Source of the DNA: Escherichia coli | GTDB lineage: Bacteria > Pseudomonadota > Gammaproteobacteria > Enterobacterales > Enterobacteriaceae | Direction: 5' to 3' (one strand) | NCBI RefSeq assembly: GCF_030013205.1 | Contig: NZ_CP122648.1 | DNA: 64,000 nt | Shown: positions 10,988 through 17,793 of the stretch, one piece after another | Position numbering within the stretch: the first letter of the stretch is position 1 | How the letters are laid out: every line of letters begins with the position of its first letter | The notes under the pieces: model-generated | What the model was told of the DNA's origin: nothing | The model's input: the letters and a program-made list of their open reading frames with translations, nothing else | Database searches by the model: none | Made by a program: the position numbers and the translations under genes

Positions 10988-11491
10988 TTACTGATAGTGT
11001 TTTATGTTCAGATAATGCCCGATGACCTTGTCATGCAGCTCCACCGATTTTGAGAACGACAGTGACTTCCGTCCCAGCCTTGCCAGATGTTGTCTCAGAT
11101 TCAGGTTATGCCGCTCAATGCGCTGAGTATAACGCTTGCTGATAACGTGCAGCTTTCCCTTCAGGCGTGATTCATACAGCGGCCAGCCATCCGTCATCCA
11201 TACCACGACCTCAAAGGCCGACAGCAGGCTCAGAAGACGCTCCAGTGTGGCCAGAGTGCGTTCACCGAAGACGTGCGCCACAACCGTCCTCCGCATCCTG
11301 TCATACGCGTAAAACAGCCAGCGCTGACGTGATTTAGCACCGACGTAGCCCCACTGTTCGTCCATTTCAGCGCAGACAATCACATCACTGCCCGGTTGTA
11401 TGCGCGAGGTTACCGACTGCGGCCTGAGTTTTTTAAGTGGCGGAAAATCGTGTTGAGGCCAACGCCAATAATGCGTGCACTGGCGCGACAT
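10988..11491 (-). CDS. insB: IS1 InsB
   Basis: 167-aa ORF inside IS1, overlapping insA in the -1 frame. Confidence 0.9.
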
Positions 11492-11685
11492 CCGACGCCA
11501 TTCATGGCCATATCAATGATTTTCTGGTGCGTACCGGGCTGAGAGGCGGCGTAAGTGAACTGTAGTTGCCATGTTTTACGGCAGTGAGAGCAGAGATAGC
11601 GCTGATGTCCGGCGGTGCTTTTGCCGTTACGCACCACCCCGTCAGTAGCTGAACAGGAGGGACAGCTGATAGAAACAGAAGCCAC
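11410..11685 (-). CDS. insA: IS1 InsA
   Basis: 91-aa ORF inside IS1. Confidence 0.9.
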
Positions 11686-11833
11686 TGGAGCACCTCAAAA
11701 ACACCATCATACACTAAATCAGTAAGTTGGCAGCATCACCTACATTCCTGCATTGTTCTGTGAACACTGACTGCAATATCAACTGACTCTCCGGAAACAA
11801 GAAAAACCGTCAGAATAAGTGCAAATACTGGAT

Positions 11834-12127
11834 TCATTGTGCACATCCTTTTGGCATCAGACGTAAACGGGCCAGCATTGAAACAATGCATACTTTATTT
11901 AATAACTCCCGTTCGTGTTTTCTTTTGTTAATGGCCTCTTCAGTGAATACAGGATTACTGATAGTGACACCAATTTCAAAACAACCTTCAGACGTATTAA
12001 CGTTTGGTAATAACGTTTTCATTATCGCGCCCTCAACAATGAGTTTTGTGATGCGGTGCCTGGTGCCTCCAGGTGACGTTAACCAGTTAACAATTAACGC
12101 CGGATACAGAGAATCCACCCATAACAC
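11834..12127 (-). CDS. hypothetical early-left protein (start uncertain; an alternative ATG at 12022 gives 62 aa)
   Basis: ORF track; stop overlaps the start of the IS1-disrupted ORF; a GAGGG SD precedes the 12022 start. Confidence 0.35.
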   Translation of the reverse strand: MLWVDSLYPALIVNWLTSPGGTRHRITKLIVEGAIMKTLLPNVNTSEGCFEIGVTISNPVFTEEAINKRKHERELLNKVCIVSMLARLRLMPKGCAQ

Positions 12128-12582
12128 TGTTTTGGGTTTTAACTGTTCCGCGTGCGCTTAGCCGCATTCACCGCATCACAAAATTCACTTTAAAAATGGC
12201 GGCAGAGCAGTCACGGAGTAAAACTGATACCGCCAAACGTCACCAGAAAATTGATAACAGAGGGCGTTGCAGCGGGGTTGTCACTTAAGCGTATGGTCAA
12301 CCTGACAACCCGGTGTCCTCAACGGGGAAGGAATAACCTCGCCATACTTACCGCCGCGCCATTTCGCGGAGTGCCACAACCGGAAGCGCACGGTCGACGA
12401 AAATTTAACGACAGGCTATCTATGAACCAGCTACCTCGCCGTGCGCTTTCGCGTTATGGTCTGACTTTTCAGGGAAATATCCTTTCAGTAAACTGTCAGT
12501 GCCGGATGTTCACCCGTGTCCGGCGCACGCACTCCACCTCACCCGTGGAGAACTCCTTAATTACCAACCCTCAGGAGGGTGA

Positions 12583-13838: not shown

Positions 13839-13939
13839 GTTCTTACGCCTCGGGCTGGCTACTTAACCCCTGACCACTGCCTGGTAACTCGAAGTATTGC
13901 CCTGCATTCTGTGGGGCGGGGTGGGTTGGTATGAAAAGA

Positions 13940-13982
13940 AGGATACCCATAGGTATTTAAAAGTAAATACCCATGGGTAACT
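13940..13982 (-). promoter_or_regulatory. left operator/promoter region (two palindromic 14-mers)
   Basis: atacccataggtat (13943-13956) and the perfect palindrome tacccatgggta (13968-13979), downstream of the repressor gene and upstream of the leftward operon. Confidence 0.5.
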
Positions 13983-14021
13983 TTTTGCGGTGTCTTAACT
14001 GGTGACTAGTTGTTTGGTGAG

Positions 14022-14441
14022 CTATGATGCGTTTTGTGCTTTCTTTTTACGGATTTCTTCGTAGATCATATTGTAATACTGTTTTTTCTCTTCAAGAGTT
14101 TTTAATAAGTTATCCGCTTCACTTTCTGGCAGTTCGTCTAAGAGATCTAAAAAAATACGTTGTCGTGGCGTTAGAACCCTTGTTTCATAACTGGAGGCTG
14201 TGTTCGTTGATGATGAAACGATACCATCCATCCATCCCCGGGGTAACCCAAAGGACTCTTCGATAATCTCCACCATATCATCAGCGATCCGTTTTTTTCC
14301 CTTTTTCCCCTCTGGGTACAACATTCTTGATACATAAGAAGGCTCGCGCCCGATCTTTCTGGCCACGTTAACCGCTTTACCATCGCATTTCTCATCACGA
14401 ATTTTGATGAGTTGCTGTCGTCTAAATTCATATTTGTCCAT
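14022..14441 (-). CDS. prophage repressor (HTH, CI/RacR-like)
   Basis: 139-aa ORF with an N-terminal helix-turn-helix (KAVNVARKIGREPSYVSRML); flanked by operator palindromes and divergent from a cro-like gene. Confidence 0.6.
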   Translation of the reverse strand: MDKYEFRRQQLIKIRDEKCDGKAVNVARKIGREPSYVSRMLYPEGKKGKKRIADDMVEIIEESFGLPRGWMDGIVSSSTNTASSYETRVLTPRQRIFLDLLDELPESEADNLLKTLEEKKQYYNMIYEEIRKKKAQNAS

Positions 14442-14475
14442 AGGTAAATAATAGATGCGATTACCGCAAGGTAAA

Positions 14476-14516
14476 CAACCTGTGGGTATTGACTTTTGTT
14501 TACCTGTGGGTATTCT
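14476..14516 (+). promoter_or_regulatory. right operator/promoter region
   Basis: Two copies of acctgtgggtat (14478-14489, 14502-14513), the reverse complement of the left-operator half-site family; a TTGACT -35-like hexamer lies between them. Confidence 0.5.
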
Positions 14517-14541
14517 TTACTGTGTTTACTAAGGAGTAGCT

Positions 14542-14823
14542 ATGGAAGAATTAAGAATATTTCTCAATTCTCTTTCGTCAGATGAACAGCGTATGTTTGC
14601 ATGCGAGTGTGGTACCAGCATCGGTTATCTAAGAAAGGCATTGAGTAAAGGTCAAGTGTTAGGGGCATCGTTATGCGTCCTTATTGAGCGAGCCAGTAAT
14701 GGTGAAGTTACACGTCAGCAACTAAGGCCTTTTGATTGGATGAATATTTGGCCCGAGCTGGAAGATACCAAAACGTTAACACAACCACTTTCTAGGAGCT
14801 TGATTCATGAAAATCAAGCATGA
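14542..14823 (+). CDS. Cro/YdaS-family HTH protein
   Basis: 93-aa ORF divergent from the repressor; segment GTSIGYLRKALSKGQV...QQLRPFDW resembles YdaS/Cro-type regulators. Confidence 0.55.
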   Translation: MEELRIFLNSLSSDEQRMFACECGTSIGYLRKALSKGQVLGASLCVLIERASNGEVTRQQLRPFDWMNIWPELEDTKTLTQPLSRSLIHENQA

Positions 14824-15232
14824 ACACATCCGCATGGCGATGAATGCCTGGGCGCATCCGGACGGTGAAAAAGTTCCGGCAGCTGAAATAACCAGGGCTT
14901 ATTTTGAACTGGGTATGACGTTCCCAGAACTGTATGACGACAGCCATCCGGAAGCCCTGGCTCGCAATACCCAGAAAATTTTCCGCTGGGTAGAGAAAGA
15001 CACCCCTGATGCAGTTGAAAAAATTCAGGCGTTGTTACCAGCGATCGAAAAGGCAATGCCACCTTTGCTGGTGGCCAGAATGCGCAGCCACAGTTCAGCT
15101 TATTTTCGGGAGCTGGTGGAGACGCGGGAGCGACTGGTGAGAGACGCTGATGATTTTGTCGCAGTGGCAATCGCCGGTTTCAATCAGATGAACCGTGGTG
15201 GCCCGGCAGGAAATGCTGTGGCAGTACATTGA
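14807..15232 (+). CDS. YdaT-like protein
   Basis: 141-aa ORF overlapping the cro-like gene by 17 nt; position equivalent to ydaT/cII in Rac-type prophages. Confidence 0.45.
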   Translation: MKIKHEHIRMAMNAWAHPDGEKVPAAEITRAYFELGMTFPELYDDSHPEALARNTQKIFRWVEKDTPDAVEKIQALLPAIEKAMPPLLVARMRSHSSAYFRELVETRERLVRDADDFVAVAIAGFNQMNRGGPAGNAVAVH

Positions 15233-15297: not shown

Positions 15298-16374
15298 GTG
15301 AGTATGGCTAACGCCTGGCTCAGATTATGGCATGACATGCCAAATGACCCTAAGTGGCGAACAATTGCCAGGGTGTCAGGGCAGCCAATTGCAACAGTGA
15401 TGGCAGTGTATATCCACCTCCTGGTGAGCGCGTCACGAAATGTCACGCGAGGTCACATTGATGTCACGACAGAAGATTTGGCAAGTGCGCTCGACGTGAC
15501 AGAAGAGGTAATTGATTCAATTTTGCAGACGATGCAGGGGCGGGTACTTGATGGTGATTTAATCACTGGATGGGAAAAACGCCAGGTGCTTAAAGAGGAC
15601 AACGGCAATATTTCGCAAACCGCAAAATCTCCTGCAGAGCGCAAGAGGGCGCAGCGAGAGAGGGAAAGAAAGCGGGAACAAAATGGCGATTGTCACGGCG
15701 CGTCACGAAATGTCACGCACATGTCACGACGAGTCACGACAGATAAAGATACAGATAAAGATACAGATCAAGAAGATCAAAACACTATGGTCCATGGCGT
15801 AAAAAACGCCACGAACCGGGCAGGGGATGTTCAGACCGTCAATCTTGGTCAGCCAGCAGGCACGACACCGGAAGCCGATTCAGCGTATGCGCTGAAAGCC
15901 GATTCGGGCGCTGTGCAGCAGGTGATGACCGCAAGGCTGGAGCAATCACACCAACTGCAGCAGCCCGAAGCCGATTCCGCCATTCAGCGGGAAGCCGATC
16001 GGGTAGTCCCGGAAAACACCGGGCAGTCTGTGGGACGAGTGGATTATCCGGATGTGTTCGAACAGGTCTGGCGGGAGTACCCGTTGCGTGCCGGAGCAAA
16101 CCCGAAGAAATCCGCTTTCAGTGCCTGGAAGGCCAGATTACGCGAGGGGGTGCCACCAGAGGCCATGCTGGATGGCGTGAGGCGTTACGCAAGATACTTG
16201 GCGGCTACCGGGAAAACGGGAACGGAATTTGTTCAGCGAGCGACGACGTTTTTTGGACCGGACCGGAATTTTGAGAACCCCTGGTTGCTCCCGGTAAGCG
16301 GCACGAACAACCAGCGTTGTGTGAATCATATTTCTGAACCGGATAACGAAATTCCGCCGGGCTTCAGGGGGTAA
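15298..16374 (+). CDS. phage replication initiation protein (O-like), origin embedded in the gene
   Basis: 358-aa ORF in the replication position; two clusters of 10-bp-phased GTCACG iterons lie inside the coding sequence. Confidence 0.5.
   Translation: MSMANAWLRLWHDMPNDPKWRTIARVSGQPIATVMAVYIHLLVSASRNVTRGHIDVTTEDLASALDVTEEVIDSILQTMQGRVLDGDLITGWEKRQVLKEDNGNISQTAKSPAERKRAQRERERKREQNGDCHGASRNVTHMSRRVTTDKDTDKDTDQEDQNTMVHGVKNATNRAGDVQTVNLGQPAGTTPEADSAYALKADSGAVQQVMTARLEQSHQLQQPEADSAIQREADRVVPENTGQSVGRVDYPDVFEQVWREYPLRAGANPKKSAFSAWKARLREGVPPEAMLDGVRRYARYLAATGKTGTEFVQRATTFFGPDRNFENPWLLPVSGTNNQRCVNHISEPDNEIPPGFRG
15431..15780 (+). repeat. iteron-like origin repeats followed by an A/T-rich repeat tract
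   Basis: GTCACG at 15432, 15442, 15463 (variant gtcaca at 15452) and at 15692, 15702, 15712, 15723, 15733; followed by agataaagatacagataaagatacagat. Confidence 0.5.
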
Positions 16375-16983: not shown

Positions 16984-17793
16984 TCACTTAATTATTGGAT
17001 AACTCACACAAGTATGACCGTTGCTTATCGCATACATTTGGTTTCCCTTAAGATTTACAAATGGAAATGTCGTATACTCATAATTTATAGAGGTCATATT
17101 AAATGTAAGGAATTTATCTTCAAGTTCTAATTTTGTAGAGTGGGCAGGGTATGTTCCTTCATTTTTCATTGTGATAATAAAACCGATAGGAAAAAAATGT
17201 AAAGCACAAATAAATGCCACATGTCCTTCGTTCATAAATGCTACACTTTGAGCGGATATGTGCATTCTGTGTGGGTAAAACCAGTAGTAAATATCATGAG
17301 TTTCCTCAAAACTTGAATTTTTACCCAAAACATAATCCTTTAAAGGTGTATAGAAGGGGCTATCTACGGGTTCTTTTTTACAATCTTCAACTGAAGTTGC
17401 TGATAGCACGTGCCCAATCATAGCCTTAGTGAAAGATATGCTATCAAAAGGTATTCTAATGAATGGATATACATTCATACCATTCATATATCGACTTAAC
17501 TGTTCTTTAAAGGACTTTGTTACATTTTCAATTGCAACATCGAGCCCACCTAATACCTTATTGTTACAGTGGCTGCAAATGGTTCTGAAATAAGAGCCAT
17601 TTTTAGCATTTAATGGTTTAACTGGTTCCTGAATACCAAAAAATTCGCTAACTGTTTTCTGCAAAACAGGGCCTAAGGTTATGGCGCACTTTGGAGGAAC
17701 ATGATCTTTTGTGAGCAAGCCATATTTCCCACAAATATTGCAATAACCTTCAGTAATGCCATTGTGCTTCCATCGTTCACTAATTTTCGTCAT
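16984..17793 (-). CDS. HNH (His-Me finger) nuclease-domain protein with an uncharacterised C-terminal domain
   Basis: 269-aa ORF; CxxC (18/21), DH-x-P (30-33), CxxC-N (73-77); GAGGG SD; AT-rich and antisense to the flanking rightward genes. Confidence 0.6.
   Translation of the reverse strand: MTKISERWKHNGITEGYCNICGKYGLLTKDHVPPKCAITLGPVLQKTVSEFFGIQEPVKPLNAKNGSYFRTICSHCNNKVLGGLDVAIENVTKSFKEQLSRYMNGMNVYPFIRIPFDSISFTKAMIGHVLSATSVEDCKKEPVDSPFYTPLKDYVLGKNSSFEETHDIYYWFYPHRMHISAQSVAFMNEGHVAFICALHFFPIGFIITMKNEGTYPAHSTKLELEDKFLTFNMTSINYEYTTFPFVNLKGNQMYAISNGHTCVSYPIIK

Follow-up and report, generated by a model that had tools for sequence, protein, structure and literature searches.

The overlapping genes at 14542-15232 of the window (the whole 64-kb stretch of Escherichia coli DNA that was analysed) are very probably the rightward early regulatory pair, of Cro/CII type, in the immunity region of a lambdoid prophage. 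This reading is built on the identities of the two genes, an exact copy of a published YdaT binding site, the layout of operators and promoters and the distribution of the pair among genomes. The pair is already known, in that close homologues have crystal structures and have been the subject of functional studies. The order of repressor, operators, cro-like gene, ydaT, O-like replication gene and DUF977 gene matches that of lambda and of CP-933P, the cryptic E. coli O157:H7 prophage with the PaaR2-YdaS-YdaT switch (PMC8630535, PMC9986795). In lambda, Cro and CII are likewise expressed from P_R, divergently from the repressor gene, with O next.

The gene pair and its prophage

14542-14823, plus strand: cro-like gene, 93 aa, ATG start (ORF list)
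14807-15232, plus strand: ydaT-family gene, 141 aa, ATG start (ORF list)

The two reading frames share 17 nt (14807-14823), and each is preceded by a Shine-Dalgarno sequence recognised by eye, AAGGAG at 14531-14536 for the 93-aa ORF and AGGAG at 14795-14799 for the 141-aa ORF. The window is 99.99% identical across 35.4 kb to the chromosome of E. coli K_EC180 and related swine ETEC/O139 strains, and RefSeq places matching coding sequences in the 99.99%-identical chromosome, with the products 'hypothetical protein' (139 aa), 'transcriptional regulator' (93 aa) and 'toxin YdaT family protein' (141 aa). The preliminary description of a 93-aa and a 141-aa gene overlapping by 17 nt is thus borne out by both the ORFs and the annotation, and the pair is not a chance arrangement of reading frames.

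The element that carries the pair is a truncated lambdoid prophage of a very common kind, inserted at a tRNA-Ser gene beside mtfA. Its other features are as follows.

1-402: IS1 at the start of the window, breaking a glycosyltransferase gene
7051-8076: integrase gene, frameshifted according to RefSeq
10973-11740: IS1 in the prophage DUF1482 gene, between the exonuclease gene and dicB
11834-12022, minus strand: DicB, full-length, in the leftward operon
12197-12248, minus strand: DicF sRNA, full-length (73.4 bits, cut-off 48)
15298-16374, plus strand: O-like replication initiator gene, following ydaT (phrog_3729, E 1e-256)
20097-26797: Q, two holins, M15 endolysin, HNH, terS and terL, all full-length ORFs
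21297-22010: AraC-type gene, downstream of Q
22037-22343: three tRNA genes, downstream of Q

The repressor gene and the left operators are followed, downstream, by the leftward operon, which comprises ydfA/B/C-like genes, the DicF RNA and DicB. The rightward arm runs from the O-like initiator through DUF977/Ren-like, DUF968, RusA, Q and AraC-type genes and the three tRNAs to the two holins, the M15 endolysin, HNH, terS and terL. It ends abruptly at terL, with zinT next, and because nothing follows the terminase large subunit the prophage cannot package DNA or make virions. The earlier statement that it can no longer lyse or package is supported for packaging but not established for lysis, as Q, the holins and the endolysin are all full-length.

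Between the replication and nin-type genes, a low-GC island (34-36%) holds a reverse-oriented orphan ORF of 269 aa (16984-17793, minus strand). It contains paired CxxC motifs, has no Pfam or PADLOC match and matches only phrog_21495 (unknown function), and could represent a moron or a defence gene.

The Qin prophage (DicA-DicC/dicF-dicB) has the same left arm, with ydfA/ydfB/ydfC-like genes, DicF and DicB, and the C-terminus of the window repressor is also DicA-like. In contrast, neither the N-terminal part of the repressor nor the Cro-like protein is of the DicA/DicC type. CP-933P differs on this side, since it has a paaA-parE toxin-antitoxin pair after the repressor gene, in place of which the window has the left operators and then ydfA/B/C-dicF-dicB.

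The 141-aa protein is a YdaT-family regulator

The 141-aa protein scores 39.6 bits against Pfam YdaT (PF06254; cut-off 21, E 7e-10) and matches phrog_163, 'CII-like transcriptional activator', at E 7e-46. It shows full-length similarity to the solved YdaT structures, which consist of a POU-like HTH domain and a long C-terminal helix. Identity reaches 99% (139/141 aligned residues, E 2e-91) with PDB 3c4r, a structural-genomics 'uncharacterized protein' from E. coli O6 (CFT073-type), so that the crystal structure of what is in effect the window YdaT has been solved; that entry carries structure only. The identity to the CP-933P YdaT construct (PDB 8bt1) is 85% (119/140, E 1e-80), and that to Rac YdaT is 33% (E 9e-16). 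The earlier naming of the second gene as YdaT-like is confirmed by the Pfam score above cut-off and by the 85-99% identity to solved YdaT structures.

The recognition helix of YdaT carries a conserved DNA-contact arginine, Arg60 in CP-933P and R57 in Rac, followed by a tryptophan (PMC9986795, PMC11879457). Arg60 and Trp61 are invariant in an alignment of seven YdaT sequences including Rac, and both are present in the window protein. Residues 50-61 of the helix are identical between the window and CP-933P proteins, which differ at residues 62-63. The gene also lies where ydaT is found in the family, between the cro-like gene and the replication genes and divergent from the repressor gene. The CP-933P protein forms a tetramer of 222 symmetry and has a POU-like domain (PMC9986795); by analogy with CP-933P and Rac the window YdaT, with its POU-like HTH domain and tetramerisation helix, would form a tetramer, bind DNA and activate a reverse promoter.

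YdaT has been described as the functional CII equivalent of the phages that carry it (PMC8630535, PMC9986795, PMC11879457). A search of the 141-aa protein with Pfam Phage_CII gave no match at E <= 0.1, and NCBIfam gave no meaningful match for either the 93-aa or the 141-aa protein. By analogy with its studied relatives, the 141-aa protein corresponds to lambda CII in function but lies outside the CII sequence family. The alternative posed in the preliminary description, that the second gene might prove to be a cII-type regulator rather than YdaT-like, is therefore a false choice: the protein belongs to the YdaT family, and YdaT is the CII equivalent. The two differ in how DNA is read, lambda CII recognising the direct repeat TTGC-N6-TTGC and YdaT an inverted repeat via its POU-like domain.

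Within ydaT, the minus strand has a terminator-like hairpin and T-run (15058-15075) whose position recalls the lambda oop antisense RNA. An oop-like antisense RNA was considered and set aside, as a promoter was not found and the hairpin lies within a conserved coding stretch.

The 93-aa protein is a Cro-type regulator

The 93-aa protein aligns over residues 4-75 with the 'Cro' chains of PDB 8c7k/8co2 (E 1e-10), matches phrog_35 (E 5e-23) and is encoded by the first gene of the rightward operon, with the operator region between it and the repressor gene. Its relation to YdaS is more distant. The score against Pfam YdaS_toxin (PF15943) is 25.8 bits (E 9e-6, residues 35-66 only), below the cut-off of 30; identity to Rac YdaS is 54% but extends across 28 aa only, and identity to the YdaS of a paaR-type O157 locus is 27%. 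Judged by these similarities, the protein is a Cro-type HTH regulator, distantly YdaS-like, so that of the earlier label 'Cro/YdaS-like' the first half stands and formal Pfam membership of the second does not. In CP-933P, YdaS and the repressor PaaR2 both bind the intergenic operators, YdaS in the manner of Cro (PMC8630535), and the operator specificity and Cro-like repression expected of the window protein would follow from the work on CP-933P and Rac. Its last seven codons (LIHENQA) are read from the YdaT-box described below, and this tail is common to unrelated Cro types.

Repressor, operators and promoters

14022-14441, minus strand: repressor gene, 139 aa, HTH, divergent from the pair (ORF list, HMM and PHROG matches)
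13939-13984, unstranded: left operator region, immediately beyond the repressor gene at its 3' end, with TACC-N4-GGTA palindromes at 13944-13955 and 13968-13979
14461-14516, unstranded: right operator/promoter region, with three TACC-N4-GGTA palindromes and a P_R-like promoter
14462-14473, 14477-14488 (1 mismatch) and 14501-14512: right palindromes, TACC-N4-GGTA
14489-14494 (-35, TTGACT) and 14511-14516 (-10, TATTCT), plus strand: P_R-like, sigma-70-like promoter (promoter scan)
14448-14475, minus strand: P_RM-like promoter, -35 at 14475-14470 and -10 at 14453-14448 (promoter scan)

Exact copies of TACC-N4-GGTA number only five in the 64 kb, and four of the five flank the repressor gene. The left and right operator modules are inverted copies of each other, with 40-nt arms that are 80% complementary. 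The P_R-like promoter is interleaved with the two rightmost operators in the 100-bp intergenic region, in which the three right palindromes lie, and the earlier description of the pair as directly downstream of the right operator is a fair one. The pair thus sits behind an operator-overlapped promoter beside a divergent repressor gene, and this layout points to repressor control. The operators of CP-933P differ, being GTTTAGTAA-type repeats.

The repressor matches phrog_5736 (E 4e-70) and combines an HTH with a DicA/PaaR-like C-terminal part. The C-terminal 51 aa match the DicA subfamily (E 2.8e-5), although the NCBIfam DicA model scores only 23.9 bits, below its cut-off of 101. The CP-933P type of repressor is a distant relative (PaaR type, 26% identity). 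The window repressor lacks an S24 peptidase domain, and SOS induction by self-cleavage is therefore unlikely. Comparison with RacR gave no similarity; RacR-type repression was accordingly rejected, and the parallel to RacR that had been drawn earlier is unsupported. This immunity type (the 139-aa repressor with TACC-N4-GGTA operators, 14022-14541) appears to be uncharacterised, although 812 complete E. coli genomes have the whole region.

In the P_RM-like promoter, the -10 element stops 6 nt short of the repressor ATG, and since the predicted transcription start is the A of that codon (14441), the repressor is probably translated from a leaderless mRNA, as is known for lambda cI and PaaR2 (PMC8630535). 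Directly after the repressor stop codon, the left operator pair reads on the minus strand as a 16-bp hairpin followed by a T-run, with a predicted RNA fold of -24 kcal/mol (z -4.2); this operator pair may double as an intrinsic terminator of the repressor transcript.

The YdaT-box and the predicted reverse promoter

14800-14817, unstranded: YdaT-box (OM operator), TTGATTCATGAAAATCAA, inverted repeat (exact pattern match)

The high-affinity site of CP-933P YdaT, mapped by DNase footprinting, is the 18-bp sequence 5'-TTGATT-N6-AATCAA-3' at the ydaS/ydaT junction (PMC9986795), and the box in the window is identical to this OM site. It is the only match without mismatch in the 64 kb to the cognate repeat expected at a ydaT start, (A/T)TGATT-N6-AATCAA, and the ydaT start codon falls inside it. 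The Rac box differs from it by 1 nt and also has the ydaT ATG in its spacer (PMC11879457). RacR-YdaS-YdaT of Rac (E. coli K-12) shares family and gene order with the window genes, and there too YdaT drives a reverse promoter that feeds the repressor gene (PMC11879457, PMC5700377). The Rac ydaS and ydaT genes do not overlap, unlike the window pair.

Functional studies of the homologues bear directly on the role of this site. CP-933P YdaT switches on a reverse promoter, located between ydaS and ydaT, that is silent without it (PMC8630535), and Rac YdaT acting on its box raises reverse-promoter activity up to 29-fold, together with racR expression (PMC11879457). The two proteins cross-activate each other's box (PMC11879457). 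In CP-933P, activation of P_RE by YdaT occurred without a clear change in PaaR2 levels (discussion in PMC11879457). The position of the reverse promoter differs between the two systems, being beside the box in CP-933P and about 190 bp away in Rac. On the minus strand near the window box, a scan with the standard consensus detected no reverse promoter, and a relaxed scan yielded weak 8/12 candidates at 14771-14743 and 14581-14554. A weak consensus is to be expected, since the promoter is presumed to be activator-dependent.

Further boxes are at chance level across the 64 kb, with 4 observed against 5.1 expected at two mismatches and 31 against 43 at three mismatches. No box-like sites above chance occur near int or Q, so that control of the kind exerted at lambda P_I and P_aQ is not evident; equivalents of those sites were not detected in the window. 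A candidate box at 8331-8348, upstream of DUF4224/int, was dropped as a chance-level match.

A proposed Cro/CII-type switch

These elements can be assembled into a switch of the lambda kind. The 139-aa repressor, bound to the TACC-N4-GGTA operators, would silence the rightward promoter. Once repression is lifted, or a naive cell is infected, a single transcript would carry the cro-like gene and ydaT, followed by the replication genes. The 93-aa protein would act like Cro, binding the same operators and turning down the repressor promoter, and YdaT would act like CII, as a tetramer on TTGATTCATGAAAATCAA spanning its own start codon. Box-bound YdaT would then activate a leftward P_RE-like promoter reading back through cro into the repressor gene, so that repression is established or maintained. 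DNA binding, reverse-promoter activation and Cro-like repression are in each case expected from CP-933P and Rac. The scheme is equivalent to that of lambda, in which a CII tetramer at the cro-cII junction drives the leftward promoter for repressor establishment. A lambda-style tR1/nutR gap is absent from the window because cro and ydaT overlap, and the overlap itself has an explanation in the box, which together with the ydaT start is read in frame as the last codons of any upstream cro gene.

Distribution and module exchange

Of 5426 complete E. coli genomes, 3042 have the ydaT module, in up to seven copies per genome, and 812 have the whole cro-like/ydaT pair (at least 80% coverage). Most genome matches begin at query positions 254-261, corresponding to 14795-14802 of the window, where the YdaT-box has its left edge. 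The ydaT-O module is also found, 97% identical, in isolated phages (Tritos, Evi, vB_EcoS-640R1 and others); the vB_EcoS-640R1 record calls ydaT 'activator protein cII', and that of Tritos has it as 'Rha family transcriptional regulator'. These phages have a DicB gene on the other arm, and DicF is annotated in Tritos. The ydaT-O module is thus an ordinary and widespread phage part.

Five other loci (L003-L007) were compared with that of the window. Their YdaT proteins are 90-99% identical to the window YdaT, and the Cro-like partners are of four further kinds, 14-33% identical to the window Cro, with two of the five belonging to the same YdaS type. The repressors include a LexA-family (S24) type, a RacR type, a PaaR type followed by a ParE toxin-antitoxin pair, and two other HTH types. 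Counting the window, the ydaT module is combined with no fewer than six different Cro/repressor sets, and homology breaks at the box. The 17-nt cro/ydaT overlap recurs in L003-L006, where the Cro genes are unrelated, and is 4 nt in L007; in the four loci of the five with the 17-nt overlap, the Cro tails end in IHENQA or IHENQT. Both the overlap and these tails arise because the box is read in frame, as TTG ATT CAT GAA AAT CAA GCA TGA.

One of these loci, L003 (the paaR-relB-parE locus of EDL933), was first taken as CP-933P, but its YdaT differs from the 8bt1 construct, and from the sequences it may be a paralogous paaR1-type locus rather than CP-933P itself. It has the 17-nt overlap and LIHENQA tail seen in the window, and the window Cro-like protein is only about 27% identical to this paaR-type YdaS. 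In L006 (NZ_CP024056.1 3129092-3132523), the YdaT is of the CP-933P rather than the Rac type, although the repressor is RacR-type and the Cro resembles Rac YdaS; RacR immunity and YdaT type are therefore not linked.

A more novel reading gives the box a broader role: translated in frame as the LIHENQA tail of the upstream Cro, whatever its type, it would be a fixed recombination joint through which a nearly invariant YdaT-replication module is swapped among many immunity types and, in addition, YdaT would serve as a 'stay lysogenic' signal across prophages. As the same box is recognised and up to seven copies occur per genome, any resident or incoming YdaT could trigger repressor synthesis in the others. 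This combined proposal is speculative and on balance doubtful. In a lesser variant, the window YdaT would be an allele with host targets of its own, toxic in the manner of Rac YdaT, in view of the helix residues (62-63) that differ from CP-933P.

Toxicity and toxin-antitoxin readings

The pair had previously been proposed as a latent toxic module, in which YdaT, YdaS or both would harm the host when de-repressed, for example via rcsA. The proposal draws its strength from Rac, where RacR is essential owing to ydaS-ydaT and its depletion is lethal (PMC5700377, PMC5700373). Rac YdaT binds the racR-ydaS intergenic region and host rcsA in addition to its box, activates rcsA and is lethal on induction independently of other Rac genes (PMC11879457); binding to the intergenic region and to rcsA, and toxicity, have not been seen for the CP-933P type. 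Viability drops by 3-4 logs under Rac YdaT, and the cells filament. Prolonged overexpression of CP-933P YdaS did cause a growth defect (PMC8630535), and the window YdaT is a full-length homologue of the Rac protein, intact in many genomes. Nevertheless, the toxic Rac YdaT is the distant relative, at 33% identity, and the nearest YdaT to have been tested, that of CP-933P at 85%, had no toxic effect (PMC8630535, Fig. [quoted passage not shown] 7C). Overexpression of lambda CII is likewise toxic, yet CII is not counted as a toxin (PMC5917428). The same ydaT module is found in isolated phages, the window repressor is unrelated to RacR, and a phenotype on loss of the repressor is explained more simply by DicF/DicB and the Q-holin-endolysin genes. 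A latent toxic module is accordingly an improbable reading of the pair.

DicF and DicB are established inhibitors of cell division and, lying on the left arm, are the likelier source of filamentation on de-repression. Their presence there would confound the repressor-depletion experiment put forward earlier.

A type II toxin-antitoxin system, with YdaT as the toxin neutralised by an HTH antitoxin YdaS, is hardly credible: the small overlapping genes with the HTH protein encoded first, the Pfam names 'YdaT_toxin' and 'YdaS_toxin' and the RefSeq product 'toxin YdaT family protein' all invite it, but the names go back to a computational prediction that experiments failed to confirm (PMC5917428, PMC8630535, PMC9986795), and YdaT binds DNA as a POU-like HTH tetramer at a defined operator (PMC9986795), which is present in the window. 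For the 141-aa protein, matches are confined to the YdaT DNA-binding family and solved HTH structures, with no recognised toxin fold among them, and PADLOC returned no defence or toxin model for the pair. Growth arrest relieved by an antitoxin was negative for the CP-933P homologues (PMC8630535). Nor does an antitoxin co-vary with YdaT in the loci compared, where near-identical YdaT proteins stand beside divergent HTH partners, and this free pairing of one YdaT with unrelated partners makes a cognate antitoxin unlikely.

Implications

The Cro/CII-type reading is of value mainly for annotation, since 'toxin YdaT' and 'YdaS toxin', as the databases have it, encourage the pair to be misread as a toxin system. 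Although cryptic, the prophage retains an immunity switch that is apparently intact. If the prophage were de-repressed, any harm would sooner be expected from DicF/DicB and the Q-lysis genes than from the cro-like/ydaT pair, and work based on repressor depletion must separate the contributions of DicF/DicB, Q-lysis and the pair. In thousands of genomes, homology breaks sharply at the YdaT-box, which provides a clean example of module exchange among lambdoid phages and, given the cross-reactivity reported for YdaT proteins, also hints that prophages in the same host may influence each other's regulation.
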